Assembly: GCA_947589395.1 (NCBI GenBank)
Contig: CANQAA010000001.1
Location: 449-64,448 of the forward strand
DNA: 64,000 bases
Origin: an uncultured Clostridia bacterium
Lineage (GTDB): Bacteria > Bacillota > Clostridia > Christensenellales > CAG-917
Direction of reading: 5' to 3'
Shown: positions 1 through 54,453 of the stretch, one piece after another
Layout of the letters: the number at the start of each line of letters is the position of its first letter
Position numbering within the stretch: position 1 is the stretch's first letter
Position numbers and translations under genes: made by a program
The notes under the pieces: model-generated
What the model saw: the letters and a program-made list of their open reading frames with translations, nothing else
What the model was told of the DNA's origin: nothing
Database searches by the model: none

Positions 1-805
1 AGACCTCGCCCACTCACTTATTTGAAACATTGCCCCCATTCGGGGCGTAGCTTGTCCTCGCCCGAGAAAGCATTTTGAAACATTCTGTCTCGGGGTCCCC
101 GCAAAAATATGCAATGTTTTTGTGGGGTAATGTACGGGGTGGAGCCGCAAGGCGGCGACCGCAGTCCAAACCCCAACAAACGAGGCAAGCTCATTTGTTG
201 GGGACCCCGATTTTACCCCATAAAAACAGGCAAGCTGTTTTGATGGGGACCCCGAAGGGGGCTGGCTGCCGTTTATCGGCAGCCTGAGGGGATTGTCTGA
301 CGTGCACTTATTCGAAGACCTGCATGAGCACGACAAACACTCATTCGAAGCGTTCTTAGACCTCGCCCGAGAAACTTCTTTGAAACTTGCTGTCTCGGGG
401 TCCCCGCAAAAATATGCAATGTTTTTGTGGGGTAAAGTTAGGGGAGCTGCCAGAATGGGCTGAGGGGATTGTCTGACAAACAACTTATTACGGGTTGAAA
501 CCTTTTTTCAAACTAAAACTTAGAGCGAGCGCTCATCCAAGCGCGCAAAATAGCGAGCGGGCGATAACAAGCAAAATGAGTGGATTTTGACCTTTATATC
601 GCAAAGCGAAGCGTAAGTTTTGCGTGCGCGGAGAAGCGAAAAAACCGTGTTGCCCTTTTGGCGAGGTTCATGCTTTGCATGAATCCGCAAGGGCTTACAC
701 GGTTTTTGAGCGGGGAAAGCCCGGAGGGAAAGGGTGGGTCTTCTAATTTGGGTTCGCACATCCAACTTAAGTAGAGAAAGTTCTCGTTTGCGTGCTTGAG
801 TACAA
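1..805 (+). repeat. Mosaic GC-rich hairpin-module repeat region, left copy (reverse-complement homolog of 53400-54330)
   Basis: No credible ORF. Many hairpins are capped by CCCC/GGGG, e.g. 97-127, 171-203, 216-248 and 264-284. A shortened second unit lies at 350-470. Long stretches recur as reverse complement at 53400-54330. Confidence 0.6.
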
Positions 806-860
806 CGAAAACTATTTCGAAGACCTATAGGAGAGCCGTCGTGCTCTTAATTTTCCTTAC

Positions 861-897
861 AAAACCACGCTCCCGTGCGGGAGCGCAAAAGATTTTT
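861..897 (-). terminator. Intrinsic terminator downstream of argS
   Basis: Stem CGCTCCC/GGGAGCG (868-885) with A/T runs on both sides. On the minus strand it is followed by TGGTTTTG. Confidence 0.5.
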
Positions 898-899
898 TG

Positions 900-2582
900 T
901 TACATCTCTTCGAGCGCGTCGATGCCGAGAAGATTAAGGCCCGTGCGGAGAGTGTTTTTGACGGCGAGGGTGAGCTTCAAGCGCGCGCTACGCACGTCCT
1001 TGTCGTCCACGATTATCCTGTGATCGATGTAAAATCGGTTGAACTTGCCAGCAAGGTCCACGATGTGGCGAGAGACGTAGCAGGGCTCGCGAAGTTTGGC
1101 GGCGAGGCGGACGCTTTCGCCGAATGTGACCACGCTTTTGACGACCTCGTAGCCTTCCGCGTCGGTGATGGAAGAAATATCCCCGTCCTCGAAGTTCGCT
1201 TCCCCGCTCTTTCTGAGCGCGCTCGCGCAGCGGGCGTAGGTATATTGAACGTACGGGGCGGTCTCGCCGTCGAAGTTGAGCACCTTGTCGTAGGAAAACA
1301 CGATATCCTTGATGCGGTTGTTCCAAAGCGCGGAAAAGACCACTGCGCCCACGCCGACGCTCTCGGCGATCTTGTCCTTATCCTTGATGTTGGGGTTTTT
1401 GTTTTCGATGATGGACTTGGCTTTTTCGACGGCGCGATCGAGGACTTCCTTGAGCCAGATCACCCTGCCGTTGCGCGTGGACATTGCGCCGTCCTCCATC
1501 GAGACCATGCCGAACGCGATGTGTTCCATGTCTTTCGCTCCTGCAAAATCCATGAGTTCAAGCACCTTAAACAGCTGCTTAAAGTGCAGATTCTGCTGAT
1601 ATGCGACGACATACAGGCATTTGAAAAAGTCGTAGGTTTGCTTTCTAAAGTAAGCGGCGGCGATGTCTCGCGTGGCGTAAAGCGTCGCCCCGTCCGCCTT
1701 GACCAAAAGACACGGCGGCATGCCGTACTCGTCGAGCTCCACGACCATTGCGCCGTCGCTCTCCTTGAGCAGTCCCTTGTCCTTCAAAATGTCGAGGCAG
1801 GGCGTCATTTTGTCGTTGTAGAAGCTCTCGCCCGCGTAGCTGTCGAAGGTGATCTTGAGTCTGTCGTACACCTTGCTCACCGCGCGCATCGTGACCTCTT
1901 TGAAGGCGTCGAAATATTTTGTCGCTTCCTTATCCCCGTCCTCGATGCGTTTGAACCAAGCTCTCGCTTCGTCGTCCATTTCGGGGTGCTCCTCCGCCTC
2001 CTTGTGATAGCGGACGTAAAGCGAATTCAAAAAGTACTCGTCGTTTCTTTCGACCTCCTCGAGCGACGACCACTTGCGGGTGGCGACGATGAGCTTGCCG
2101 AATTGCGTGCCCCAATCGCCCAAGTGATTGATGCCCACGACCTTATATCCCAAGTGCTTGAAGATCCTGTACAGCGCGCCGCCGATGACGGTCGTGCTGA
2201 GATGTCCTATGTGGAAGGGCTTTGCGATGTTGACGGAGCTATAGTCTATGCATATGGTCTTGCCCTCGCCTTCCGTCGACGTCCCCACGACGGGCGTATC
2301 CGCCGCCGCGAGCGCGAGTTTTGCTACGGTTTGCTTGTCGAAAAATATGTTTAGATATCCCCCGACGACTTCCGCTCTCTCGACGAAGTCCAGTCCCTCT
2401 ACGCGTTCCTTTAGGTTTTGCGCTATGACGGGCGGAGGGAGCCTCAACGTACGCGAAAATTTGAAGCACGGAAGGCTTATGTCCGCAAGTTTCGCGTCCT
2501 TTGGAGCTTCGAGCGCGCATTCTATCTCTTCAGCCGTGAGCTGCGCGTCGCTCAGCGCTTTTGCCAATTCACTTTCAAACAT
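900..2582 (-). CDS. argS: Arginine--tRNA ligase
   Basis: Start trimmed to MFESELAKAL. Class I HIGH motif (PFHIGHLSTTVIG) and full-length ArgRS-like sequence. The ATG lies 2 nt after the proS stop. Confidence 0.93.
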   Translation of the reverse strand: MFESELAKALSDAQLTAEEIECALEAPKDAKLADISLPCFKFSRTLRLPPPVIAQNLKERVEGLDFVERAEVVGGYLNIFFDKQTVAKLALAAADTPVVGTSTEGEGKTICIDYSSVNIAKPFHIGHLSTTVIGGALYRIFKHLGYKVVGINHLGDWGTQFGKLIVATRKWSSLEEVERNDEYFLNSLYVRYHKEAEEHPEMDDEARAWFKRIEDGDKEATKYFDAFKEVTMRAVSKVYDRLKITFDSYAGESFYNDKMTPCLDILKDKGLLKESDGAMVVELDEYGMPPCLLVKADGATLYATRDIAAAYFRKQTYDFFKCLYVVAYQQNLHFKQLFKVLELMDFAGAKDMEHIAFGMVSMEDGAMSTRNGRVIWLKEVLDRAVEKAKSIIENKNPNIKDKDKIAESVGVGAVVFSALWNNRIKDIVFSYDKVLNFDGETAPYVQYTYARCASALRKSGEANFEDGDISSITDAEGYEVVKSVVTFGESVRLAAKLREPCYVSRHIVDLAGKFNRFYIDHRIIVDDKDVRSARLKLTLAVKNTLRTGLNLLGIDALEEM

Positions 2583-5019: not shown

Positions 5020-7527
5020 TTAATCTTGTTTGACCCAAAGGTCAAGTTTGTCGCAAGCGATCAAGACGGGTTGGTCGCTCGGCAGGGCGGAAATATTGCT
5101 CGCCACTTCTGGCCCCGTGGAGTTGTAATGCATTCTTTTATAATTTGGAGTATTATAATCCCAACCGGATCTTTTATCGATACTTCTCCACTGCGTTTCA
5201 TCACCCGCATAATATATATCTTCCACGCCTGTACATCCACCGAATGCATAACTGCCTATGCTTTGCACGCTGTCGGGAATTATTACGGAGGTTATATCTG
5301 AACAATCATAGAATGCATATGCGGATATTTTGGCAACTCCGTCCAAACCATTTACTTCGGTTACCAAAGCATCATTCAGATACAATTTTGCCGTGCCTGC
5401 TATGTTATTGTTTGCCGCAAACAAAGGATTGGCTTCATAATTTCCAAACTCGATCTCGCACCATGTCTTAAGTGAAGTTACATTCACCTTTGTTATGTTC
5501 ACACAACCGGAGAATGCATCCTCGCCTATGCTTTGCACACTGTCGGGAATGATGACAGAGGTTATGCCTGTGCACTTAGAGAATGCATACTCGCCTATAC
5601 TCTTCACGCTGTCGGGAATTGTGACGGAAGTTATGCCTGTAAGTCCATAAAATGCATATTCACCTATCTTTGTTGTGCCTGCAGGAATAGTAAGATTTGT
5701 TAGATCTACTAAATCCTCATTACAATATAACTCTGCTTTGCCGTCGGTAACAGACAAAGGATTGGCTGACCCACCACCAAACTCGATCTCACACCATCCT
5801 TTGAAATTCCCGAGATAATTGACTTCGGTTATGCCCCTGCAAAACTGGAATGCTCCACCGCCTATACTTTGCACACTGTCGGGAATGGTAACAGAGGTTA
5901 TGCCTGTGCAATAGGAGAATGCATCATGGCCTATACTTTGCACTCCGTCGCCTATCGTCACCGTCTTTAAGCCTGTACAATTACGGAATGCATAATAGCC
6001 TATGCTTTGCACGCCGTCGCCTATCGTCAATGACTGCAGTCCTGTGCAGTCGTAGAATGCACTATTGCCTATGCTCTGCACACTGATGGGAATTGTTATC
6101 TCGCTCAAGCCTGCGCAACCACAGAATGCATACTCGTCTATGCTCTGCGCGCTGCCCGGAATTGTTACGGAGGTTATATCTGAACAACAATAGAATGCAT
6201 ATGCGGATATTTTGGCAACTCCGTCCAAATCATTTACTTCGGTTACCAAAGCGTCATTCAGATATAGCTTTGCATTACCTTGTGCCGCAGACAAAGGATT
6301 GGCGTCACGATTTCCAAACTCGATCTCGCACCATGTCTTAAGTGAAGTTACATTCACCTTTGTTATGTTCACACAACCGTAGAATATGTCAGCGCCTATA
6401 CTTTGCACATTCGCGCCTATGTTTATTGTTGATATATTATTCAAGGATATATTATTATAGTCGAATATTGGATACCCTTGATCTTTTTCTATAGCGCAAT
6501 TTATAGCATTCCAATTCAATGTCTGCAAATTCGTGCACTTCTCGAATGCTCTCTCGCCTATGCTTTGCATGCTGTCCGGAATTGTGATGGCAGTTAAACC
6601 TTTGCCACTAAAAGCAGACTTGTTGATTTTGACGCACCCGTCGAGGATCGCAACTTCGCCTTCTAACGCTTCTGGAATAAAATAAATTGATTTGTCGGTT
6701 TTGTTATAAACTATCCCATCTTTGCTTAGATAAATTGCATTGCCCTCTTCAATAAAAATCGATTTAAGACTGTTGCAACCGTCAAATGCAGACGACGCTA
6801 AGTTTTGCACGCCGTCGCCTATCGTCACCGTCTTTAAGCCTGTGCAACTTGCGAATGCACATTCGCCCATACTTTGCACCCCGTCGGGAATAGAAACCGA
6901 CGCTATCGTATTGCAACCTTCAAATGCGTAGCCGCCGATGGACGTGATCGTTTGCCCGTCTATCTCGCTTGGGATAACAAGGTCGCTCACAAGCGCTATT
7001 CTGTCGCTGTGCCCAACCAAAACTCCGTCCTTCACAAGCAGCACGCACCCGCCGAACTCCGCTTTGAGAGTGGCGTTTTGCTCGATGTTCCAATTTGCTA
7101 TGCTGCCGTCCGAAGCGGAAAGCCGTATGCCGTTGTACGCCCAGCCCAAAAACTCCGTGTATATCTCGTTGGCGGGTTTGGGTACGGGCAATTGACAGGG
7201 CTTGCCATATTGCACCGTATATTCGGTCTTTTCAAGCGGTTTGCACCCCTCGACGTCCAAAGTCACGGTAAACTCCGTTCCTATCGCCGGCGTATTCCCA
7301 CCTGTTGATGGTGTATTCTCACCTGTTGACGGAGTATTCCCACCTGTTGATGGAGTATTTCCACCTGTTGATGGGGTATTCCCTCCCGTTGAGGGCGTGT
7401 CCCCGCCGGTTCCCACGTTGCTTGGGGGAGTGTTGGGCTGCGCTTCCTTGCCGCAAGCGGCGAGGGTCAGGATCAAACATAAAAGACATAGCGCCAATAT
7501 AAGCGCAAAAACAACTTTCTTTTTCAT
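5020..7527 (-). CDS. BspA-type leucine-rich-repeat surface lipoprotein
   Basis: Start trimmed to MKKKVVF, preceded by GGAGGT. Lipobox LTLAAC|G, then a GGNTPST x5 linker, then many repeats of the form IPDSVQSIGxxAFxxCTGLxSVTI. Confidence 0.85.
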   Translation of the reverse strand: MKKKVVFALILALCLLCLILTLAACGKEAQPNTPPSNVGTGGDTPSTGGNTPSTGGNTPSTGGNTPSTGENTPSTGGNTPAIGTEFTVTLDVEGCKPLEKTEYTVQYGKPCQLPVPKPANEIYTEFLGWAYNGIRLSASDGSIANWNIEQNATLKAEFGGCVLLVKDGVLVGHSDRIALVSDLVIPSEIDGQTITSIGGYAFEGCNTIASVSIPDGVQSMGECAFASCTGLKTVTIGDGVQNLASSAFDGCNSLKSIFIEEGNAIYLSKDGIVYNKTDKSIYFIPEALEGEVAILDGCVKINKSAFSGKGLTAITIPDSMQSIGERAFEKCTNLQTLNWNAINCAIEKDQGYPIFDYNNISLNNISTINIGANVQSIGADIFYGCVNITKVNVTSLKTWCEIEFGNRDANPLSAAQGNAKLYLNDALVTEVNDLDGVAKISAYAFYCCSDITSVTIPGSAQSIDEYAFCGCAGLSEITIPISVQSIGNSAFYDCTGLQSLTIGDGVQSIGYYAFRNCTGLKTVTIGDGVQSIGHDAFSYCTGITSVTIPDSVQSIGGGAFQFCRGITEVNYLGNFKGWCEIEFGGGSANPLSVTDGKAELYCNEDLVDLTNLTIPAGTTKIGEYAFYGLTGITSVTIPDSVKSIGEYAFSKCTGITSVIIPDSVQSIGEDAFSGCVNITKVNVTSLKTWCEIEFGNYEANPLFAANNNIAGTAKLYLNDALVTEVNGLDGVAKISAYAFYDCSDITSVIIPDSVQSIGSYAFGGCTGVEDIYYAGDETQWRSIDKRSGWDYNTPNYKRMHYNSTGPEVASNISALPSDQPVLIACDKLDLWVKQD
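7291..7416. repeat. Six 21-bp tandem repeats encoding the (T/G)GGNTPS linker of the LRR lipoprotein
   Basis: gtattcccacctgttgatgg-like units at 7291, 7312, 7333, 7354, 7375 and 7396. Confidence 0.8.
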
Positions 7528-9197: not shown

Positions 9198-9926
9198 ATG
9201 TATATCTATGGACGAAATCCCGTAAAAGAAGCGTATCTCGCGGGCAAAACCGTGAACAAGCTCTACGTTCAAAAGGGCGAGCCCGACTCCACCCTTTCGC
9301 GCGTCCTCAAACTCGCAAAAGAGGCGAGAACCGTGATAAGCTACGTCGACCAAAAAAAACTCGATTTGCTCGCGGAGGGCAAAAATCATCAAGGCGTGGT
9401 CGCCGCCGTCACGGACTTTGAATATTGCGAGCTCGACGACATCCTCGCGCTTGCAAAAAGCAGGGGGGAAGAGCCTTTTCTCGTGCTGCTCGACGGCATA
9501 ACAGATCCCCACAATTTCGGCGCGATGATAAGAAGCGCGGAGTGCTTCGGCGTGCACGGCGTCGTTATTCCCAAACATCGCAGCGCCGTCGTCAACGACA
9601 CGGTCGTCAAAGTCTCAAGCGGGGCTGCCGAGCACATGCTCATTGCAAAAGTCACAAATCTCAACGACGCGATAAGATATCTCAAACAGCAAAATATATG
9701 GGTTTATGCGACAGATTTTGACGGTAAACCCCCAAAATGTGCAAATTTGACGGGCGCTGTTGCGATCGTCGTGGGTAGCGAAGGCGAGGGCATCCATCGT
9801 CTGACAAAGGAGCTTGCGGACGACGTTTTGACCATCGAGCAATATGGCAAGATCAACTCGCTCAACGCGTCCGTCGCGCTTGGCGTGACCCTATATGAGG
9901 CAGCAAAACAAAGACATGAAAAGTGA
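9198..9926 (+). CDS. rlmB: 23S rRNA (guanosine-2'-O)-methyltransferase, SpoU/TrmH family
   Basis: N-terminus YIYGRNPVKEAY. SpoU motifs ITDPHNFGAMIRSAECFG, VVGSEGEGI and NSLNASVA. Confidence 0.85.
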   Translation: MYIYGRNPVKEAYLAGKTVNKLYVQKGEPDSTLSRVLKLAKEARTVISYVDQKKLDLLAEGKNHQGVVAAVTDFEYCELDDILALAKSRGEEPFLVLLDGITDPHNFGAMIRSAECFGVHGVVIPKHRSAVVNDTVVKVSSGAAEHMLIAKVTNLNDAIRYLKQQNIWVYATDFDGKPPKCANLTGAVAIVVGSEGEGIHRLTKELADDVLTIEQYGKINSLNASVALGVTLYEAAKQRHEK

Positions 9927-11686: not shown

Positions 11687-12643
11687 TTATTCCCTGACTT
11701 CTTCCTCAGGTTCGGCGGGGGCGGAGGGGTCGACGACGGCGGTGGGAGCGCCGTCGGATTGCTCTTCCTTTTTCGCGACAAGGGAGCAGATATAGGAGTC
11801 CGTCTCGCAGTCCACGACGTTGATGGAATATATCGCGACGGGCACGAGTATCAAAAGCGCAAGCACCACGTTGAAGAGGGAGATCAGCAGCGCGAGCGCG
11901 ACGTTCATCACCAGCACTATCACGATAAACAGGAAGTGTTGAAACACGTTGCCCGGCGTCAAAACTTCCTTCAAGGATATCTTTTTGTCGTTGTACACGA
12001 GCCAGGACGTCGCAAGGTTGATGATGCCCGCAAACGTCACGAACGCCACCATCGCGATGAGGCTGTACATCTTGATGAGGGAGACGAGAAAGAGGAACGC
12101 GATGACGCACACCGCCTCGAAAAGGGGCGCGAGCGTGTGCGCGATCACAAACTTTTTGACGTTGCGCTTCGCGACCTTGCGCCTAAGCGCAAATCGAGTG
12201 ACGTAGCTTGCGATGGTTATGCCCGCAGCTCCAAGCGCGATCGCGCCGCCGAGTTGAGCGAGCAACGTGCTTTTGAGATTGGAAACTATCGCGGTGAACT
12301 CCGCCTCAAAACCCGCCGTCGACACATTGAGCGTCTCAAAGAAGTTGACGAGGGTGCTTTGCAACCAATTTACGTCCAGCACTTGTCTCAGAACGCTGAG
12401 AAGCGACCCGTTCCACTCTATCTGCCCGAACGAATACGCAAGGGCGTCCTCAACGGATGCGGAGGACTGCTCCACCGACGTGCCCACAAGTTCCACGAGG
12501 TCGCCCAACGACCCTGCAAAGCTCTGCACCGCCGTCCCCAAAAACATGAAGACGGCAAGCAGCACGAAAAGATATACTATGCCCATAGGAATGAACACAT
12601 AAAGAAGGTTTGAAAAGAAGTTTTTGAGAGAATTTTTTATCAT
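11687..12643 (-). CDS. Hypothetical polytopic membrane protein
   Basis: 318-aa ORF with several long hydrophobic segments and an acidic/proline tail. The antisense ORF of similar length is Arg/His-rich and implausible. Confidence 0.65.
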   Translation of the reverse strand: MIKNSLKNFFSNLLYVFIPMGIVYLFVLLAVFMFLGTAVQSFAGSLGDLVELVGTSVEQSSASVEDALAYSFGQIEWNGSLLSVLRQVLDVNWLQSTLVNFFETLNVSTAGFEAEFTAIVSNLKSTLLAQLGGAIALGAAGITIASYVTRFALRRKVAKRNVKKFVIAHTLAPLFEAVCVIAFLFLVSLIKMYSLIAMVAFVTFAGIINLATSWLVYNDKKISLKEVLTPGNVFQHFLFIVIVLVMNVALALLISLFNVVLALLILVPVAIYSINVVDCETDSYICSLVAKKEEQSDGAPTAVVDPSAPAEPEEEVRE

Positions 12644-18109: not shown

Positions 18110-21100
18110 TCACTTGAAATATTCCACAGCGCTTTCAAACAGCTTCATGTCGTAGTTGCCGGGCACGTTTTGATAGAGCCCGCCGCCCTTTCTTTCCGCA
18201 TGTCCCATCTTGCCGAAGATCCTGCCGTCGGGAGAGAGCACGCCCTCTATCGCGTTCACGCTGCCGTTGGGGTTGAAGCGGATGTCCATCGTGGGCTCGT
18301 CCTCGAGGTCGACGTATTGGGTCATAATCTGTCCGTTCTCTGCAAGTTTTTTCACGAGCTCGTTCGAGGCGATGAACTTGCCTTCGCCGTGCGATATCGG
18401 GACGGAGAACACGTCGCCGACGTTGACTTTTTTGAGCCAAGCGGACGCGTTGGAGGCGACTCTCACCCTCACGATACGCGACTGGTGTCTGCCAATGTCG
18501 TTGTATGTGAGCGTGGGGCAGGTCTCGTCTGCGTCGACGATCCTGCCGTAGGGCACGAGCCCGAGTTTGATGAGCGCCTGAAAACCGTTGCAAATGCCGC
18601 CCATGAGCCCGTCGCGCTTTGCAAGAAGCTCCTCGATCTGCTCGCGCACTTCGCCGTTTCTGAAAAACGCCGTGATGAACTTGCCGGAGCCGTCCGGCTC
18701 GTCTCCGCCCGAAAAGCCGCCCGGAATGAACACGATCTGACTGTCCTTGATAAGCGACGCAAACTCGCTCACCGACCTTGCGACGTCGTCCGCGCTGCCG
18801 TTTCTTATCACAAACAGCTTCGCCTTGCCACCCGCGTCCTCGAACGCCTTTTTCGTGTCGTACTCGCAATTCGTGCCGGGAAAGACGGGAATGAGTACGC
18901 TCGGACGCGCGACTTTGACGTGAGCCTCGAACTTCTTCTCGCTCTTGTAGCTCGCCTTGAAGGTCTCCCCCTCGACCTTGATGTTGCAGGGGTACACGCT
19001 CTCGAGCTTGTCCTCGTAAATCTTTTGAAGCTCATCGAGCGGAAGTCTCTCGCCGCTCATCTCTATGACGGGGGCGGATATCGTCTCGCCAAGCAGTTCG
19101 AACTCCTCTGCGTCGTCGACCATTTCGAGCACGAAACTGCCGTAGCAATATTCAAAAACGGCACTTAAAGTGGTGTTTTTGTCATATTCAAACCCGATTT
19201 TGTTGCCAATGCACGCTTTGAACACGCCTTCCGCAACGCCGCCGTACGTCGGGGTGAAACAGCTGACCGCCCGCCCGCTTTGCAAGAGCGTCGAGACGAT
19301 CTCGAAGTTCTTTTTGAGGGAGTCTTTTTCGGGCAAGCCGTTTTTATATTCGGGTCTTATTATGACGACCTTGTGTCCCGCCGCCTTGAAGACGTTGTCT
19401 TTCACTTCGTTCGCCTTTCCCGTCGTCACGGCAAACGAGACGAGCGTGGGCGGGACGTCGATGCTTTCAAACGTGCCGCTCATGGAGTCCTTGCCGCCTA
19501 TCGCCGCGATCTCGAGATCCTTTTGCGCCTCGAACGCGCCCAGCAACGCCTCAAACGGCTGCGCCCAACGCCTCTCGTCCCTCATGGGTTTGAGGAAATA
19601 TTCCTGAAAAGTCAAATACATGTCCTCAAAATGCGCGCCGCTTGCAATCAGTTTACTCACGCTCTCCACGACCGCGAGATACGCGCCGTGATACGGGCTC
19701 TTTTCAAGGATATACGGATTCGACCCCCACGCCATATACGAGACGGAGTCCGTGTGACCGTTTTCAAGCGAGATGAGGTGGACCATCGCCTGCGGAGGAG
19801 TCTGTTGATATTTGCCGCCAAATGGCATGAGCACCGTGCCCGCGCCTATCGTCGAATCGAATCTCTCTGCCAGCCCGCGTTTGGAGCAGACGTTGAGATC
19901 GTCAAGTAACGCCTCGTAGCCCGCCTTGAAGTCCGTCGGGACGCGCTTTGCAAACGGTTTTGCCGCTTGAGATCTGACGCGAATGTGCTTCTCCGCTCCG
20001 TTGGAGTTCAAAAATTCCCTCGAGATGTCGACGATCGCCTTGCCCCGCCACTTCATGACGAGGCGGTTTTCATCCGTGACTCTCGCGACTTCCGTCGCCT
20101 CCAAATTCTCCTCGTTTGCGAGCGCGACGAAGCGCCTGACTTTGTCCGCCTCGACGACCACCGCCATTCTCTCCTGAGACTCCGAGATGGCAAGCTCCGT
20201 GCCGTCCAGCCCGTCGTACTTTTTGGGAACGAGGTCGAGGTTTATCTCAAGCCCGTCCGCAAGCTCGCCTATCGCGACGGACACGCCTCCCGCGCCGAAG
20301 TCGTTGCAACGCTTGATGAGAAGCGTCGCCTCCTTGTTGCGGAAAAGCCTCTGCAACTTTCTCTCTTCCGGAGCGTTGCCCTTTTGAACTTCCGCTCCGC
20401 ATTGCGTGAGGGAGCTTTGCGTGTGCGATTTGCTCGAACCAGTCGCGCCGCCGCAGCCGTCTCTGCCCGTCTTGCCGCCGAGCAAGATGACCCGATCTCC
20501 CGCCTTTGGGACTTCGCGCCGCACGTTCTCCTGAGGAGTCGCGGCGATGACCGCGCCTATCTCCAGCCTCTTTGCGACGTAGCCTTCGTGATACATCTCG
20601 TCCACCTGCCCTGTCGCGAGCCCGATCTGATTGCCATACGACGAATAGCCCGCCGCCGCCGTAGTCACGATCTTTCGCTGCGGGAGCTTGCCCGCCAATG
20701 TGTCCTTGACGGGAACGAGGGGGTTTGCCGCGCCCGTGACGCGCATCGCCGCATAGACGTAGCTCCTGCCCGAAAGCGGGTCGCGTATTGCGCCGCCGAT
20801 GCAGGTCGCCGCGCCGCCGAATGGCTCTATTTCTGTGGGATGGTTGTGCGTTTCGTTTTTGAAGAGCAACAGCCAATCCTCGTCCTTGCCGTCCACGTTG
20901 ACCTTGATCTTGACCGTGCAGGCGTTGATCTCGTCGCTCTCGTCGAGTTTCGCGAGCTTGCCGCGAGCCTTGAGCAACTTCGCCGCGATCGTGCCTATGT
21001 CCATGAGGTTGACGGGCTTTGTCCTGCCAATTTCCTTTCTTGCGGAAAGATAGTCCTCATACGCCGCCTCTATCTCGGCGTCCTCGAACGTGACGTCGTC

Positions 21101-37046: not shown

Positions 37047-38682
37047 TCACGCGGTATGCGCCCGGTTTTATACGCAATACGCACGCGCGCAACAATCAGA
37101 TCATAACGCGTCGCGCACGCGTAGGCGTAAATGTCCGCACGGAACATGCAAGCTGTAGGGGTTTACACGGGCTGTAGGGTTTATGCAAGCTATTGGGACA
37201 TATAAAAGCGATAGAGTTCGCGGCATATTGACGAAAGACGTCTTCCTGCCGATCGCAAAAAACGAGGGAATGCGAGACGGAAGGATGTCGCCGTACAAGC
37301 GTATGACGCGCTCTGTGACTTGAAGCCTTGATAGGCTCACGCTGCCCTTTTATGGCCGCTAAGGCGCAAAGATGTCGCTGCAACTTGCGCGTGTTCGCGA
37401 ACGTATGCGCCCGCCGTATGACGAAAATCATGTTGTACGGCGTGTTGCTGCTTGCGCTTGCTCGCGATCGCATGCGCGATTGTCGCGGCAGAGGCAATTC
37501 CTTTTGCAAAACTCGGGGATATGGGGAGGCAACTGCTCATGGAGTATACAAACCCAACGCCATATCCGGCAGGGGAGACCACACTCCCCGCCTCCCCTAT
37601 CCCGCAATCGCAAAAAGGGCGTTCTCGCGACATGTCTTGATAGGCAGTCTTGACGCGTGCATTCAAATGGGCGATTTCCTCTTGCGTCGCTTTGCATGAG
37701 GGCGTGTTACGCAATGTTTTGTGCGTCCTACGGTTTTGTTTTGCATAGCCGACGAGCTTCGGGGCTTTTTAGCAATGCATAGTCTGGTCGACGACCGTAG
37801 GAGATTTTGAGCAACGTCGCTTACAAAACGGCTTTTCAACTATGCGACTTTTGAAAGCGCTTATGTGCGCCGTCTCGTCTTACTTAAACGAGTCTATATG
37901 CGAGGCGCTTTTTGCAACGAAGTAGATAAGAACGATTTATATTTAAATTAGCTAATGTTTATTGATATTTTAGTATACTTGTGAACTATTATGCGCTGTT
38001 GAAAGCGTCGCCGTCTATTCTTTGCATTATTAGTCCAATCCAATGTCCTCGATTGAGCTGTTGTGCGCAGTCAACATCGATTCCGATTCGCCATTAAACT
38101 TGTCCTATGCCACTGACTGCAATGCGCCAATCAAGGTAATCGCTGAGTATACAAATGGGAAAGTCGCGTTGCTTGCGCACTCGATTTTAGTCAATTACCC
38201 GTCTGATGTAAGTCATAAAGACAAAAGCTGAACTGTGCGGTAATAGCAATTCAAGCGAAAAAAGCGTAAGTACAAGCAAAATAATACCCATAACATATGG
38301 AATAACTTGCAAAAACAGAACTTACTTCCATAAAATTATTAGTCAGAGCACAGGTCAATTACAGATATTATTGCGATAAAGCTTAGAACTAAAACATTGT
38401 AAAAATACAAAATTCAGGCAAGAAAAACGCCAATAAACAGTGATGTTTTACAAAAAATTAACAAACTACAAGCTCGGAAACGGCTGACGAGACAAGGCAT
38501 CGCCATATATAGAATATTGTGAAACAAATTCAAAAAAATCAAGAAAATTTGCGAAACATTCTCTGAAAAATCGGGGTGAAAAATTTGGGTGAAAGGAGCT
38601 CAAAATTTTTCAAGGAGAAAGAACGAAATTTACTTTTCGGTGAGCAAAACACCTACTATTTAGTGGCATTTTCGCTGTTTTC

Positions 38683-38698
38683 GGTTTCACGTGAAACG
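38683..38698. promoter_or_regulatory. parS site (14/16 match to consensus)
   Basis: gGTTTCACGTGAAACg compared with TGTTNCACGTGAAACA. Confidence 0.75.
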
Positions 38699-38713
38699 GA
38701 CGGAGCGGATTTT

Positions 38714-38729
38714 TGTTCCACGTGAAACA
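38714..38729. promoter_or_regulatory. parS site (16/16 match)
   Basis: TGTTCCACGTGAAACA is identical to the Bacillus-type Spo0J/ParB binding consensus. Confidence 0.85.
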
Positions 38730-39533
38730 TTGACTTTTCTTGGAATTTTCCGCCATACTGACCCGAAAACCCCGCTGCGCGACAGATCGACTTATGATAG
38801 GAGTTTTTCTCTCTTGCGCACAATAAAATCCCAAACACGTTAAGCTCCTCAGCTTGGGACGACCGGCTCAAATAATGCCGCTGTATTGATGGCAACTGCC
38901 CAAACGATTTATGACCGACTGTCTTCTTTTTTTATACCCTTCTTTACGGCTTTTGGGCTTACAGTCACACTTTTGAACAATATTTTGATATTTTGCCACA
39001 AAACTGACCGCTCTGCAGACTGTCACGCTTCTTTTATGTAAAAAACCGGCCTATAACATCTTTCAGACCATATGTTGAGAAACTGAGAAAATCAATCATT
39101 TTTATTTCGCCATTCATGACCTGTTTATCGTCCAAATTTCACCGGAAACTATTGATTTTGTTGCCAAACACTATACTACAAAGACAAATTGGACGAACTG
39201 CTTAAGAGAAAGATGACGGCAATTATATGAATAAGCAAGCGCGTGTGCGGGCAATATTTGTACTACGCAAATTTGTCATAGTGTGAGCAACCAAGTTTGC
39301 TTGTGAGCGATCTCTAAGGTTATTGACGAGCAAAAGCGCACACAAGTACAATTTATCAATTGGCAAATTTGCTGTCAAGGGGCTAATCGGTGGGGCAAGT
39401 AGCTAAAGAATATAAGGGATTACGGGGATTCACATGATATATCGCCGAGAGCGGTCTTGCAGTCAATTTTGCGCGTTTGACAAAACCTCGATTTCTTCAC
39501 TATTCAGTGGCATTTTTGAGACAATTTCCGCGA

Positions 39534-39549
39534 TGTTTCATGTGAAACA
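39534..39549. promoter_or_regulatory. parS site (15/16 match)
   Basis: TGTTTCATGTGAAACA embedded in the longer palindrome cgcgaTGTTTCATGTGAAACAtcgcg. Confidence 0.75.
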
Positions 39550-40790
39550 TCGCGCAATATTCGATAGTTGCGCACCACTTGTATAATAAACAACACGGGT
39601 TACAACGGTAAGTATCGAACTGCAAGCGTAGCACATTATGGCAAATATATCATATGACAGGAGTTGTGCATAACGCCAATGTTATGCATGGCAGCAAAAC
39701 ATAGCGTGTGCCGGCTGACAGAGCGCGTGGTGTCAATCATAACGTGTGACGGCATGCTCCATGCGAGACATGGTAGACAGGACATTTCGACGGCAGCAAA
39801 AAGGCTCAATTCAAACTTTGTGAATTACAGCAAATGTTCTGCATGATCTAAAGCAGCGCAGAAATTGTAAGTATTGTGAGCGCCAAGCAAAACGTGTGGC
39901 AAGCAAAGCATGTTGGGCAATATATAATTCGTGCAGGACAAGAAGGAAAAACTTAAGACGAACAAAAAAGGTGAGCGCAAAAATCATTGAGACGAGAGAA
40001 ATTATAGTGAAAGATGTGAGGGGACGATATGTTTGGCATGCGGCATGTAAATAAGTGAGACATGTGTCAAAAGGAATGAATGAGAAGCGTGAGGGGCAAT
40101 CGAGGATCATATGCCGACACCTTCCCTGCAATGTAATAGACTCGTGAACTTGTCAAAAGTCGAAAAGATCCGTGCGCAAATGAATGCGGGTAGCGATCTG
40201 AACAGTGCAAAACTGTTTACACATGTATGTGCGAGCGAATATTAGCGTGGCCGTGCATGTTGGGTGACGACGAGCGGGGACGAGGCATAAAGGCAAAAGG
40301 CATGCGGGTTTAACAGGTTGGCGGGCATATAAAAACGAGAAAGCGGGCGAGGACGGTGCGCAAAGTCGACATGCGAGACGAACGAGCGGACGAGCCGAGT
40401 GAAAAAGTTGATGCAAGAGCCGCCACGTTCGACATCAAAAAACGAAGACTTGAGTGGAGAGCGGACGGATATTGCATGCCAAAGCCGAAAAATGTCGAGC
40501 GATGGTTGGGCGAAATGGGCGCTAAAAAGCGAAATTCGGCGTGAGGAGCGGAAAAATCAAGGGGTTTGGGGAGTGGGGCGGAAAGCAAAATTACAGGGAA
40601 TCGGAATTTTCGCGGGATGAGGAATGTATCGGCTTCGCGGAAAAATTCTCGACAGAAAAATTTGCCGTATGCTCGAAGCAAAATTTGCCGTATGTTTGGG
40701 ACAAAATTTTACCGCTCGACGAGTAGTCTTGCTCTTCTCCTGCGCACAATCTTGCGCATCGCTCGTTCCTTCGAATGGTTTAATGAAAAT

Positions 40791-41130
40791 GACTATTCTA
40801 ATAATATACGGCTATCCTCAAATAAGTAAGATCTCTCTGATGTTATAAAGCTATCCTCTTGGGATATGGGTATCATAATGAAATACGGGTGTCATAATGA
40901 GGTAGTGTATTATAATGATATAGGGTTATCCCAATGATATGGATTATTATTTTATAGGGCGTTCCGGTGGGATCAACTATCTTTTCGGGGCAAATCGTCC
41001 CATTCGAGATGAAGCTATCATGACGAGGCAAAGTTATCCCCATGCGTTATGACTTTCCAAATGATATATAGCTATTCTAATAAGATATGACTATACCAAT
41101 GAGATACGACAAAACTAATGAGATGGAGCC
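40791..41130. repeat. Array of about 17 degenerate 18-20-bp units, each a small dyad (TATC-N5-GATA type), in two blocks
   Basis: Units start at 40791, 40811, 40850, 40870, 40889, 40907 and 40925, then 41014, 41033, 41051, 41071, 41089 and 41108. Examples are gttatcccaatgatatgg and gctattctaataagatat. Stops occur in all frames. Confidence 0.7.
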
Positions 41131-41704
41131 TTCTATTATATAAAAATATGTTGCTTTTGATCTTTCACGTTACAATATTGATAGGGTAGTTTAGTTATCC
41201 CATGCACAAACGTATGAACGTTGTTTTGAAGACATTCAATCGCTTTTCCCGCATTTTTCGAATCTACACTTCCCACAAGCGGGACAAGTTTGCGTGACAA
41301 TTTAGGCATTATGTTTAATTGAACAGGCTATATACGTCTCTTCGGCAATTGTATAGCTGCTTGGATGTTGCAAGATCACCCTTTATTCCCGCTTTTTGGT
41401 CTGCTGGTTTCTGTGGCCGGACAAAATGCCGGCGCGATCTTTATGTTTTTGCGTTTTTATAAATATTACCTTTTATACTTTTACTTTTCCTGCGCTCGGT
41501 GGATGTTTGTTTTAACTCCTCACTTCGCAAGGGCGTTTTTATGCGCCCGTCGCTTTATCGACGATATTTGGGCTGCCGCGCCATATTTTCGTCACATACA
41601 GTATATTAGTTAACAAGTAAACTAATATGCATCATCAAAAGTTTCTGCGTTTGATCCGCTATGCGGAACGTATGATGTTTGCAATATACTTTGTGGAGTT
41701 TGGA

Positions 41705-47491: not shown

Positions 47492-48865
47492 ATGATAAAT
47501 ATAGACGAATTTTGGGCGAACGTAAGCACAGAGCTTTCAATTTCAATGAACACTCTGCATTATCAACTCTGGATCGAACATCTTGAGCCCGTTTGCTTTA
47601 TCAACAACTCCCTCGTTCTTATGACCATCACAGAGATGGCAAAGCGCACAATAGACGCAAAATATCGCGACGTGATAAAGGAAGTTGCAAACTCAATCAA
47701 CTCGTTTGTGGACGACATCATCATAATAACTCCCGACAAAAAGGACGAGTTTTTGTCAAAGCAAAATATATTTATCGAAAACAAGGGTTTCGTCACAAAA
47801 AAGCCCGTGAAGGACATTTCGGACATTCGCCATTGCCAATTTCTTGAGAAGTTCACGTTTGAAAACTTTGTGGAAGGCGCGTCAAACAGTTTTGCTCTTG
47901 CCGCTTGCAAGACCGTCGCGGAAAATCCGGGAGGGAAGTACAACCCGCTCTTCATCTACTCCGGCGTGGGACTCGGAAAGACGCATCTTTTGCACTCGAT
48001 AGGCAATTACATCTTCAAAAACTCGCCGAAGACGAGCGTGCTTTACGTCAGCACGGAGTCTCTTGTCAACGACCTTATTTCCGTGTTCCGCACGGGGTCT
48101 AACGAAAAAAACAACGAATTTCGCGAAAAATACCGTTCTTGCGACATCCTCATGGTGGACGACATTCAATATCTCATCGGAAAAGACGCAATACAGAATG
48201 CATTTTTCAACATCTTCAACGACCTGTATCATCAAAACAAGCAGATCATTTTGACTTCGGACAGAGCTCCAAAAGACCTGACTACTCTCGAGGACAGGCT
48301 TCGCACGCGCTTCAGTTGGGGGCTTATGGTCGACATTCAGCCGCCGGATCTCGAACTTAGGGTCGCGATACTCAAAAACAAAGCGGATCAGGCAAACTTC
48401 GACCTCTCCGACGAAGTGGCGCTCTTTATTGCCGAGCACGCGCAGACGAACATTCGCGAGCTTGAGGGATTTTTGAATAAGATAATCTTTTACAGCTCCC
48501 TCACAAACACCGTCATTCGCACAAAAGAGCTTGCGTATGAGGCGATAAGCGACTTCATTGAGGACAAAAAGGATACTGTCGAGGCGTGCGATATCATCGA
48601 TTGCGTCTCAAAATATTTCAACATCTCCCAGCAGGATTTGTTTGCAAAAAAGCGCACGAAGGGCGTCGTTGAGCCGAGAATGATAGCGATCTATCTCATC
48701 ACCGAGCTTCTGCCCATGCCCCTCTCGCAAATAGGGGAGTTGTTTGGCGGAAGGGATCACACGACCATCATCCACGCCCGCGACAAGATAAGCGAAGAGA
48801 TAAAGGTCAATCCCCGCATGCGCATCATCGTCACCGACATAAAAAATATGATATTGAATAAGTGA
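47492..48865 (+). CDS. dnaA: Chromosomal replication initiator protein DnaA
   Basis: AAA+ motifs (GGVGLGKTHLLHSIGN, DILMVDDIQYL) and the domain IV motif (FGGRDHTTIIHARDKI). Confidence 0.97.
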   Translation: MINIDEFWANVSTELSISMNTLHYQLWIEHLEPVCFINNSLVLMTITEMAKRTIDAKYRDVIKEVANSINSFVDDIIIITPDKKDEFLSKQNIFIENKGFVTKKPVKDISDIRHCQFLEKFTFENFVEGASNSFALAACKTVAENPGGKYNPLFIYSGVGLGKTHLLHSIGNYIFKNSPKTSVLYVSTESLVNDLISVFRTGSNEKNNEFREKYRSCDILMVDDIQYLIGKDAIQNAFFNIFNDLYHQNKQIILTSDRAPKDLTTLEDRLRTRFSWGLMVDIQPPDLELRVAILKNKADQANFDLSDEVALFIAEHAQTNIRELEGFLNKIIFYSSLTNTVIRTKELAYEAISDFIEDKKDTVEACDIIDCVSKYFNISQQDLFAKKRTKGVVEPRMIAIYLITELLPMPLSQIGELFGGRDHTTIIHARDKISEEIKVNPRMRIIVTDIKNMILNK

Positions 48866-48867
48866 AT

Positions 48868-48905
48868 TAAAAAAAAACGGCTGTTTTTGCAGCCGTGTTT
48901 TTTTA
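48868..48905. terminator. Bidirectional terminator between convergent dnaA and dnaN
   Basis: A9, then ACGGCTG/CAGCCGT stem, then T7. Confidence 0.75.
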
Positions 48906-48910
48906 TAGTT

Positions 48911-50011
48911 TTATCCGATAACTCTCAAGGGAAGGATGAGATACAGCCACTTGTTTGTCTCGCCCTTTATTATGCACGGGGCAGTTGAGGATGTGAAGTT
49001 GAGCGTAACATACGGCTCGTCGATCGCGTGCATGCAGTCGATGAGATATTTTGAGTTGAAGCCGATGACGAGGTCCTTGCCTTTGAGGCTGATTGCGACC
49101 TTCTCGTTTATCTCGCCGTCCTCGCTGTGCGCGTAAAGCTGGATGTTGTCCTCTTTGACCTCTATCCTCACATAAGATTTTTTATCCAGTCGGTTGATGA
49201 GCGCAACTCTGTCGATGGAGTTTTCAAACTGTTTTTTGTCTATCGTGACTTCGGTTGAAAAGACGTTGGGAATGATGCGCTCGTAGTTGATATATTCCTC
49301 GCTGATTAGGCGTGTGACGATCTTTGTGTGGAAGAGATCCACCATGATGTAGTTTTTCTCGACAAACACGGTGATGGTCTCGTCGCCGTCGTCGATAAGG
49401 CGGGAGAGCTCGTTCATGCTCTTTGCCGGAACGACGATCTTGTCCACAATGCCGTTGTTTTTGATGACGGAGCGTGTGAGAGCAAGGCGATATCCGTCGC
49501 TTGCGACAGCCTCGAGCTCATCCTCTTTGATGTTAAGACATACGCCGCGAAGGGTGGGGCGCGCCTCGTCTACGGACACGTTGAAGATGACCTTGTTGAT
49601 GACTTCTTTCAGCTCTTTTTTCAAGATGACGAAGGAGTGCGAGGTGTCGACTTCCTTGAAAACGGGATATTCTTCCGCCGCAAAACACTTTATTTGCAAC
49701 TCGCTGTCAGGATATCTTATGACGAGTTTTGAAAGCGCCGTACCGTCAAGCTCGACCTCTTCGGTCTCGATCTTCTTCGCGTAATCCGCAAACAGCTTGC
49801 CCGGAACGACGACTTCGCCGTCTATCAAGACTTTGGCGTTTATTTTCTTTTCGATTGCCAACTCCAGATCCGTTGCAAAAAGCGTGAGCGTGTCGTCTTT
49901 TGCGGTGACTTTCACGCCTTCCAATATTGCGTTCGTCCTCTTTTGAGGAAGCGCCTTTACTACCTTGCTCAATGCGTCGCTGAGTTCATTTCCTTGACAA
50001 ATAACTTTCAT
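48911..50011 (-). CDS. dnaN: DNA polymerase III beta sliding clamp
   Basis: 366 aa. MKVICQGNELSDALSKV..ILEGVKV..., three-domain length, C-terminal LYLILPLRV. Confidence 0.93.
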   Translation of the reverse strand: MKVICQGNELSDALSKVVKALPQKRTNAILEGVKVTAKDDTLTLFATDLELAIEKKINAKVLIDGEVVVPGKLFADYAKKIETEEVELDGTALSKLVIRYPDSELQIKCFAAEEYPVFKEVDTSHSFVILKKELKEVINKVIFNVSVDEARPTLRGVCLNIKEDELEAVASDGYRLALTRSVIKNNGIVDKIVVPAKSMNELSRLIDDGDETITVFVEKNYIMVDLFHTKIVTRLISEEYINYERIIPNVFSTEVTIDKKQFENSIDRVALINRLDKKSYVRIEVKEDNIQLYAHSEDGEINEKVAISLKGKDLVIGFNSKYLIDCMHAIDEPYVTLNFTSSTAPCIIKGETNKWLYLILPLRVIG

Positions 50012-52810: not shown

Positions 52811-53240
52811 ACGAGGGACTCGCTCCGTTTGACTTCAGCAAGACCTTTCGCGCAACTTTTCGTTATATGCGTTCCCGTGCGACTGCACGCTGTCTGCACT
52901 ATCACGCCGGCCGCTAAAAAGTGTTCACCGAACACTTTTCTTAACGCGGCGTTCGAGTCCCTCAAAAATAGGATAGGGACGAGATAAAAAATCTCACCTC
53001 TATGAGAGATGAGATTTTTTATGGCGCCTATTGAGGGACTCGCTCCGTTTGACTACGGCAACGCCTCTCGCACAACTTTTCGTTATATGCGTTCCCGTGC
53101 GACGGTTCGTTGTCTGCACTATCACGCCGGCCGCTAAAAACTGTCCACCGGACACTTTTCTTAACGCGGCGTTCGAGCCCCTCAAAAATAGGATAGGAAC
53201 GAGATAAAAAATCTCACCTCTATGAGAGATGAGATTTTTT
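52811..53240 (-). repeat. Two tandem 220-bp units, each ending in a copy of the tRNA-Asn 3' T-arm/acceptor and followed by a bidirectional terminator hairpin
   Basis: GAGGGACTCG recurs at 52813, 53033 and 53253 (the last is in the true tRNA). Units are 52811-52980 and 53022-53200. Terminator hairpins lie at 52991-53015 and 53211-53235. Confidence 0.75.
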
Positions 53241-53241
53241 A

Positions 53242-53317
53242 TGGCGCCTGTTGAGGGACTCGAACCCCCGACACTTCGGTTAACAGCCGAATGCTCTACC
53301 GACTGAGCTAAACAGGC
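53242..53317 (-). tRNA. tRNA-Asn (anticodon GUU), CCA encoded
   Basis: Cloverleaf by hand: acceptor GCCTGTT/AACAGGC, D-arm GCTC..GAGC, anticodon stem TTCGG/CCGAA with loop CTGTTAA, and T-arm GGGGG-TTCGAGT-CCCTC. Confidence 0.9.
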
Positions 53318-53336
53318 ATATCTTTTATGCTTGAAT

Positions 53337-53366
53337 ATCATAATATCATACGCCCGATTTTGTCAA
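53337..53366 (-). promoter_or_regulatory. Promoter of tRNA-Asn
   Basis: TTGACA, 18 nt, TATGAT on the minus strand, about 20 nt upstream of the tRNA 5' end. Confidence 0.45.
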
Positions 53367-53399
53367 GCATTTTTTTGATTTTAGTGTGCGGTAAAATTG

Positions 53400-54330
53400 A
53401 AATTTAAAACGGCTTCCGCTCAAAAACCGTGTAAGGCTCAGACTTGCGCGGTTTTTGAGCGGCACGATTTTCACTTCGAATAAGTTCTCGTCGTGCTCAA
53501 GCACGCAAATGAGAGCTTTCTCTACTTAAGTTGGATGTGCGCCCTGAATAGAAGCCCACCCTTTCCCTCCGGGCTTTCCCCTCTCCACACAAATATAGCG
53601 TATCCTCTACATCAAGTTATCATCATGTGCGGGAGGGGAAGTCGCCTCGCTCAAAGCCGGTCGCCTCTACTTATGCCGCTTGCGGCAGGAGGAAAAACAG
53701 AACTCTCCTGCCGCCCGCGCACTGCAAGTAAGACCGCTCGGACATCGGGGTCCCCAACAAATGAGCTTGTCTCGTTTGTTGGGGTTTGGACGACGGTCGC
53801 CGCCGTTGCGGCTCCACCCCGTCTCAGCAGAATGTTTCAAAATACTTTCTCGGGCGAGGACAAACTACGCCCCTAATAAGAACCGTCGTGCTCATGCAGG
53901 TCTCCGAATGAGTGCACGTTATTATTCTTCGAACAAATTTACATTCTCGCCGCCGTTGCGGCTCCACCCCGTACATTACCCCACAAAAACATTGCATATT
54001 TTTGCGGGGACCCCGAGACAGCAAGTTTCAAAGAAGTTTCTCGGGCGAGGACAAGCTACGCCCCGAATAAAGTGCAATGTTTCAAACAAGAGAGTAAGCC
54101 AGGTCTAAGAACGCTTCGAACGAGAAATCGTCGTGCTCATGCAGGTCTTCGAATAAGTGCACGTCAGACAATCCCCTCAGGCTGCCGATAAACGGCAGCC
54201 AGCCCCCTTCGGGGTCCCCATCAAAACAGCTTGTCTGTTTTTATGGGGTAAAATCGGGGTCCCCAACAAATGAGCTTGCCACGTTTGTTGGGGTTAGACT
54301 TAGGGAGTCCTAATTAAGAACAGGTTTTAT
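53400..54330 (-). repeat. Mosaic GC-rich hairpin-module repeat region, right copy (reverse complement of modules in 1-805)
   Basis: For example, 54001-54050 is the reverse complement of 361-410, 54141-54300 of about 165-330, and 53491-53582 of 713-805. Module order differs between the two copies. Confidence 0.65.
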
Positions 54331-54453
54331 ATATAAACAAAAGTATCAAACAAAAAGCGCGGAATAACGCGCTTTTTGATGTGATAATTTAATATGTATT
54401 GTTTTTTAGAACGTCGGCGTGTTTCTTAGAACGTCGGTGCGTTACTTAAAACG

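Follow-up and report, generated by a model that had tools for sequence, protein, structure and literature searches.

Small interspersed repeats such as REP, BOX, ERIC and Correia are well described in Proteobacteria and streptococci. We know of hardly any account of them in the uncultured Clostridia that dominate gut metagenomes. For the locus reported here, the closest architectural analogue among the described systems is the BOX element of Streptococcus pneumoniae, the analogy being one of architecture and not of homology. BOX elements are composite intergenic repeats with the arrangement boxA-boxB(n)-boxC, in which the ends are fixed and the internal tandem array is variable; they are placed at gene ends, the number of internal modules varies between loci and strains, and several stem-loops are predicted if they are transcribed (PMC3049150). 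BOX also has terminal inverted repeats and target-site duplications. In REP sequences one end of the palindrome bears a conserved tetranucleotide tag, GTAG or CGTC (PMC3733652), and successive REPs in a BIME alternate in orientation (PMC2817692).

The window, that is the whole 64-kb stretch of DNA that was analysed and the part of this genome that was examined, contains two copies of what is probably a lineage-specific composite intergenic repeat, one at 1-833 on the plus strand and the other at 54,295-53,416 on the minus strand. The likeness to BOX lies in the composite build, the variable number of internal modules, the placement at gene ends and the several stem-loops predicted on transcription; the head of the array differs among the left copy, the right copy and a strain variant, L081 (Logan SRR29273037), while the tail is conserved. 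Unlike BOX, however, the repeat is found in an uncultured Clostridia lineage, has no sequence similarity to BOX, and has a longer conserved unit (~310 nt, about six helices) with covariation, and its copies in a sister species have no terminal inverted repeats (inverted end match <=8 nt). With REP, BIME and REPIN of Enterobacteria and Pseudomonas, the repeat shares G+C-clamped extragenic palindromes, mosaic arrays at gene 3' ends and persistence by vertical descent at given loci, and its hairpins P, Q, A, B and C (Table 1) have the size given for REP (imperfect palindromes of 20-40 bp). On the other hand, these hairpins open with CCCC/CCCG or GGCT and close with GGGG/AGCC, with no GTAG or CGTC beside them as in REP, and within an array every asymmetric loop (GGCAAGCT for A and B, TATGCAATG for Q) reads on one and the same strand, unlike the alternation described for BIME.

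The window is chromosomal DNA of an uncultured Clostridia bacterium. Its genes include argS (900-2582, minus strand), proS, gyrA, gyrB, spo0A, dnaA (47492-48865) and dnaN, and the window therefore lies near the replication origin. The closest public ArgRS proteins in genomes and metagenomes are just 78-80% identical and come from Bacillota/Clostridia MAGs, and those of named Christensenella species are 53-56% identical. Two other features of the origin region may be recorded. The genes dnaA (plus) and dnaN (minus) are adjacent yet convergent (47492-50011); the pair is usually co-oriented, so that this layout is unusual. In addition, an AT-richer stretch at ~37700-41700 (GC 0.40-0.45), about 6-10 kb from dnaA and beside a change in the sign of the GC skew (~36-38 kb), has short ORFs only and no Rfam match at E <= 0.1; it could be non-coding DNA that is linked to the origin or is unusual in some other way.

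The left copy is non-coding, hairpin-dense DNA made of near-perfect hairpins, and its array is cut by the window start at position 1. The order of its head is lead, P, Q, R, A, B, mini, C, linker, D, E, P, Q, degenerate R, in which the P, Q, A, B and C hairpins are 21-35 nt long with 8-14 pairs and at most one mismatch. For positions 1-480 the fold reaches -215 kcal/mol against -159 ± 7 in dinucleotide shuffles (z = -8.1), and the opposite strand has z = -9.0; because both strands fold strongly, the fold energy does not choose a strand. A module pattern of 23 bases is found 5 times where chance predicts 0.00, and CCCC...GGGG hairpins are confined to the two composite copies, none being found elsewhere in the 64 kb. 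Only short ORFs overlap the hairpin region, and neither the 142-aa ORF inside the repeat nor the concatenated six-frame translation of the right copy has a match among 5.8 billion proteins. An earlier reading made from the sequence only had described a non-coding, hairpin-dense region of tandem units, which the fold (z about -8) and the missing protein matches bear out; the coordinates that it gave for hairpins Q, A, B, mini and C are exact, while P lies at 61-95 and not at 64-96. It had also pointed to an orphan CCCC (205-208) that could pair with GGGG (288-291) around three hairpins. Both are present, and in a local fold of 165-296 the predicted junction closes with a probability of ~0.96; the two copies are identical there, so that the prediction is without covariation. 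A shortened second unit, too, had been proposed and is indeed found: 342-451 is 83% identical to 37-146, and within it 361-435 is 92% identical to 56-130.

Table 1. Modules of the two copies in the window and the features that bound them.
Feature	Position	Strand	Remark
End of upstream unit (E-box tail, 'agacct') and 'lead' segment	1-60	+	Small hairpin CCCCC-att-CGGGG at 33-45
Hairpin P (CCCGAGA...TCTCGGGG)	61-95	+	Second occurrence at 366-400
Hairpin Q (CCCCGCAAAAA / TTTTTGTGGGG, one G·T)	97-127	+	Identical copy at 402-432
R module	131-170	+	Hairpin GCCGC-aag-GCGGC at 144-156
Hairpin A (CCCCAACAAA...TTTGTTGGGG)	171-203	+	C·A mismatch
Possible three-way junction	205-291	+	CCCC 205-208 pairs with GGGG 288-291 in the local fold
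Hairpin B, inside the junction	216-248	+	
Mini hairpin CCCC-gaa-GGGG, inside the junction	250-260	+	
Hairpin C, inside the junction	264-284	+	
Linker CTGAGGGGATTGTCTGAC	284-301	+	Repeated at 460-477
D and E boxes with 'ATTCGAAG' motifs	302-363	+	Counterparts of the 5' start in the ~310-nt element
Second, shortened tandem unit (E, P, Q, degenerate R, linker)	342-477	+	Period 305 nt
Copy-specific spacer with its own hairpins	478-639	+	No counterpart in the right copy
Tail (3' half of the ~310-nt element, in diverged form)	640-778	+	
Start of a further truncated unit (AACGAAAACTATTTCGAAGACC)	779-833	+	Equivalent to the 5' start in the ~310-nt element
argS terminator	865-888	-	Bounds the left element; argS ends at 900
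tRNA-Asn, neighbour of the right copy	53242-53317	-	Promoter-like site TTGACA-18-TATGAT at 53366-53337
Start of truncated next unit (to ~53474), then hairpin CCGCTCAAAAACCG...CGGTTTTTGAGCGG (53416-53462)	53416-53517	-	
Tail of the right copy	53518-53702	-	Matches the 3' half of the ~310-nt element (H4, H5, H6) over its full length
Head of the right copy	53744-54295	-	Module series
Terminator-like hairpin of the 1119-aa ORF (54454-57813, -)	54349-54380	-	~55 nt before the first module of the right copy

The second copy, already suspected from the letters, is real and inverted, with identities of 88.3-100% across the matched segments. Positions 169-363 correspond to 54295-54101 (96.4%), 38-158 to 54068-53947 (94.3%, the adjacent 12-33 matching 54095-54074), 361-435 to 54050-53976 (100%) and 712-822, the tail common to both copies, to 53581-53474 (88.3%); in both, ~40 nt from the beginning of a further unit come after the tail. 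Read on the minus strand, the modules of the right head are A, B, mini, C, linker, D, E, lead, P, Q, R, spacer, D', lead', P' (decayed), R, A, so the two copies differ in the order, the number and the start point of their modules. The CCCC...GGGG hairpins are nearly identical between copies, and compensatory evidence among them comes from A versus B only (two swaps), while the lead hairpin and P' of the right copy have decayed without compensation. In the strain variant L081, whose contig terminates within the array, a B-type hairpin stands in place of the A hairpin of the window. The right copy is placed between the terminator of the 1119-aa ORF and the tRNA-Asn promoter. Directly downstream of this tRNA gene we also observed a 220-nt tandem duplication (52813-53032 and 53033-53252, 93% identical), each duplicate of which ends with the same 39-nt terminator-like hairpin (52984-53022 and 53204-53242).

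Database searches give no known family for the repeat. A scan of the whole window with Rfam at gathering thresholds finds tRNA only; sensitive scans of 1-1000 and 53200-54500 (E <= 10) return chance miRNA and sRNA matches far below threshold, and the Rfam 15 models of ROOL, GOLLD, OLE, raiA, HEARO and T-box give no match even at E <= 10. This agrees with the earlier reading, which had matched the region to no RNA family, whereas the resemblance to ROOL/GOLLD loci that had been suggested finds no match at that threshold. Rfam also has no match on the element in three relatives (L001, L002 and L090), and BLAST of phage and plasmid collections finds none. The exact pattern of A/B hairpin ends has 0 matches in GTDB representatives, JGI metagenomes and IMG/VR; in IMG/VR the core motif likewise has 0 matches, and the R motif alone gives chance coding matches only. 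Several candidates were considered and set aside. A T-box or other argS leader, considered in L002, is rejected since Rfam gives no match and since the element is also met with elsewhere, in different contexts and orientations; a small toxin ORF of a type I toxin-antitoxin system is rejected since the variants aligned in A4 share no conserved reading frame; and for an oriC or parS-type origin element the sequence gives no support, though all loci are origin-proximal.

The relatives of this genome show what the repeat is made of. Their contigs were obtained via ArgRS homologues, and all sampled sister loci are origin-proximal, around argS. In the nearest relatives (L001, L002 and L090), the first shared blocks seen near argS are the R hairpin, the ATTCGAAG boxes and the tail. 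In a sister species with ArgRS ~80% identical, a non-coding element of ~305-320 nt with about six helices is found in several intergenic spacers and in both orientations, at a density of 3-4 copies per 21 kb. Contig L174 has four, at 5471-6075(+), 9517-9923(-), 12043-12395(-) and 19714-20065(-), located in the amylase/ODP (+), ychF/argS (-), argS/rpmH (-) and mnmG/pgm (-) spacers respectively, and L170 and L176 have three copies apiece. Tandem 5' modules number 1-3 per copy (e.g. L170 5677-5916). The R hairpin is the most conserved piece of the family, its 19 nt in the window being identical (19/19) to the sister-species copies. The copy between argS and rpmH, convergent with argS, has the same place and orientation in the left copy of the window, L001, L170, L174 and L176, and is therefore old; relatives at 72-76% ArgRS identity (L003, L004 and L091) lack the element at that locus. 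Meanwhile, L174, L175 and L176 share an identical ArgRS (P0134) but differ in the occupied spacers and in the orientation of copies, L175 having a copy neither in the ychF-argS spacer nor in the argS-rpmH spacer. Filled sites, when set against empty ones, show that sequence was replaced or deleted, with no clean insertion accompanied by a duplication, and in four sister copies searched for terminal inverted repeats the longest exact inverted end match is 5-8 nt; with neither such repeats nor a target-site duplication, the repeat does not fit a MITE.

A few further observations were made in these relatives. The argS-rpmH spacer of L175 (~12040-12430, minus strand) holds a different sequence of ~400 nt behind the same AT-rich heptad leader, as though the leader had been kept and its cargo replaced. 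In L001 (480-545) a solitary 5'-module fragment of ~45 nt (TTCGAGAACGGAGTCGGAGTCGCAAGGCGAC), with the GTCGC/GCGAC stem variant, adjoins the stop codon of an ODP/flavodoxin-domain gene upstream of bacA and ychF, and the R hairpin therefore occurs also alone. There is a second repeat family in the relatives, made up of long imperfect hairpins in which the centre (CAACCCTAATGTNC...GNACATGAGTTG) is conserved; these hairpins sit directly past gene ends and are often paired (L090 5685-5920; L002 9400-9640 and 11690-11800; L176 11700-11790). Downstream of argS in L002 (11807-11877, plus strand), the Gut-1 RNA model has a sub-threshold match (32.8 bits against a gathering threshold of 50, E 0.007).

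Models built from sister copies only (an nhmmer profile and the covariance model R1, from alignments A4/A6) were used to search the window. The profile matches 53702-53518(-) with E 1.4e-10 and 705-778(+) with E 0.003; the covariance model matches 53650-53518(-) over its full length (model positions 1-142) with 46.1 bits and E 1e-11, and 640-778(+) with E 0.021, and has no other match in the window. The tails of both copies are thus homologous to the 3' half of the dispersed ~310-nt sister-species element; in the left tail H5 and H6 are retained and H4 is swapped for another hairpin. At the 5' side, a profile of the 5' module has no significant match in the window (best E 2.1); the R hairpin and the ATTCGAAG boxes are recognisable there, parted by ~190 nt of extra hairpins and with D before E, an order that differs from the family element. 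The head is best read as a tandem amplification, with a period of ~305 nt, of the 5' module of the element (the ATTCGAAG boxes and the R hairpin), to which short CCCC...GGGG palindromes, near-perfect in pairing (P, Q, A, B, mini and C), have been added in the species of the window.

The compensatory changes that had been proposed as a test of the copies are found in the conserved core. Since whole-element MAFFT alignment followed by RNAalifold misaligned swapped stems, the hairpins were analysed singly and with the covariance model. Across 13 copies, including those of the window, H4 is 97.7% paired, and 9 of its 10 pairs have changed on both sides. For the 3' half the covariation score is 0.213, whereas shuffles give 0.136 ± 0.013, with none of 500 as high as 0.213, and controls with slid partners give 0.07-0.11; the alignment used for this score (A7) is fitted to the model, and the MAFFT alignment A6 points in the same direction. 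H2 occurs as three unlike self-complementary stems, GCAAGTGC/GCACTTGC, TGCGTGGC/GCCACGCA and TGCGCC/GGCGCA, which share a conserved GTKTTGTT loop start. The stem of H1 (R) varies among GCCGC/GCGGC, GTCGC/GCGAC and GCGTTCGC/GCGAACGC, and in the two imperfect copies the odd pair is G·T on the sense strand in both. For H4b, H5 and H6 the covariation is weak only. It should be noted that stem swaps in multicopy palindromes can come from template-switch mutation, with no selection needed.

As to the strand, G·U pairs are conserved at four positions in 9-13 of the 13 copies and would be C·A mismatches on the other strand, which points to plus as the sense strand at the left copy and minus at the right. 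The strands that the sequence-only reading had assigned fit this result in the family core, while its argument from the lone G:T pair of hairpin Q is offset by hairpin A. Indeed the strand signal of the window palindromes is mixed: Q folds better on the sense strand (-17.1 versus -9.7 kcal/mol), and A has a C·A mismatch that favours the antisense strand. In the sister copies the whole-element folds have unremarkable z-scores (-2.6 to +0.3), and the gap between sense and antisense energies is 12-22 kcal/mol; this gap was dropped as strand evidence, for shuffles show it to be mostly compositional, because G exceeds C. Taken together, the compensatory changes and the one-strand G·U pairs suggest that the selected structure is most likely that of a sense-strand transcript.

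Signals of expression differ between the sister species and the window. Upstream of every full-length sister copy, in the same orientation, there is an (AATNAAT)n heptad array of 4-6 units, variable in number (seen in L170-L179 and L002; examples are L176 9587-9615 and 12152-12182, and L174 20140-20170), which yields a weak promoter-like match TTAATA-17-AATAAT (9/12). The window has no heptad array, no sigma-70-like promoter was found in or before either of its copies, and no terminator was found past the 3' end of the element.

These signals bear directly on whether the copies are independent multicopy ncRNA genes of ~350 nt with their own promoters, acting in trans, for instance as regulatory or protein-sponge RNAs whose tandem 5' hairpins multiply the binding sites, and not passive ends of transcripts. 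The array and promoter-like match before every full-length sister copy speak for such genes, as do the covariation with its one-strand G·U pairs and an R hairpin identical over 19 nt between species at only 80% ArgRS identity. We nevertheless regard them as unlikely, considering that the promoter match is weak, that a terminator is missing, that the window has neither array nor promoter, and that copies are gained and lost among strains with identical ArgRS, which would be unusual for an essential regulator. The same turnover between strains would be expected if the repeats were neutral quasi-palindromes that function neither as RNA nor as DNA, and that template-switch repair keeps perfect while gene conversion homogenises them. 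Such an origin would also fit the species-specific hairpins, near-perfect and almost identical between copies, the modules that decay without compensation, and the sister copies that are not unusually stable. Yet the argS-rpmH copy persists in place and orientation across species at 80% ArgRS identity, with its core still alignable and its R hairpin identical, and G·U pairs are conserved on one strand alone, so a neutral origin appears quite improbable.

An explanation at the DNA level would be a REP/BIME-type repeat, in which palindromes forming hairpins in single-stranded DNA are spread by a RAYT (Y1 transposase) encoded elsewhere; repeats of this type have a high copy number (>100) dispersed across the genome. 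It is suggested by the G+C-clamped imperfect palindromes of 21-35 nt and by the mosaic intergenic arrays at gene ends in which assemblies break. However, the tag and the alternating orientation both fail in this alternative, which the sequence-only reading had itself raised: no hairpin end has GTAG or CGTC, and the hairpins, as judged by their loops, are all in the same orientation. Moreover, the hairpins occur within the two composite copies and are not scattered singly in the 64 kb, the conserved part is a multi-helix unit of 310 nt and not a palindrome of 30 nt, and a scan of 30 ORFs of the window, roughly half of the ~60 candidates, finds no transposase, so that we give this explanation very little credence. 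Least credible is the idea, envisaged earlier, of one large RNA gene with a multi-junction structure like those of ROOL, GOLLD or OLE; it is largely refuted. Like ROOL and GOLLD, the region is long, non-coding and highly structured, with a very stable fold, no protein match and one copy beside a tRNA gene. But it is multicopy, modular and tandemly duplicated, has no prophage context, and matches no covariance model of ROOL, GOLLD, OLE, raiA, HEARO or other Rfam families at E <= 10. The modules are reshuffled, their order and number varying between copies and strains, with unique spacers inserted; a tandem duplication of units does not suit one fixed architecture, and relatives have the compact 310-nt version in many copies.

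We therefore return to the composite intergenic repeat, which, with the mechanism and the role at transcript ends given here, we consider the probable explanation. Its arrays appear to grow, shrink and swap modules via unequal homologous recombination, slippage or gene conversion among modules that are nearly identical; this is suggested because the order and number of modules differ, A is replaced by B in L081, and the sister copies have mosaic stem variants. Classical transposition is unlikely because there is no terminal inverted repeat and no clean target-site duplication. The most likely role would be that of a structured stretch of RNA where transcription units end, which would protect or insulate the transcript ends as proposed for BOX and REP; a role at transcript ends or as an independent ncRNA is in either case putative.

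A bolder interpretation, possible but doubtful at present, is that the repeat belongs to an undescribed class of multicopy six-helix structured RNAs of ~310 nt in uncultured gut Clostridia, with tandem 5' hairpins and a turnover outpacing that of the housekeeping neighbours. It might then be either a selfish or mobile element at the RNA level, with no terminal inverted repeats and no known transposase, or a trans-acting RNA in which the number of hairpins is tuned by recombination. The interest of the family lies in a long multi-helix core with compensatory changes, a module that amplifies in tandem, and a turnover visible between strains of identical ArgRS. The arrays also break metagenomic assemblies, several contigs ending inside them, and spawn spurious ORFs; a model of the family would therefore better the annotation of MAGs. 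If expressed, the element would represent a new class of structured RNA, absent from Rfam.
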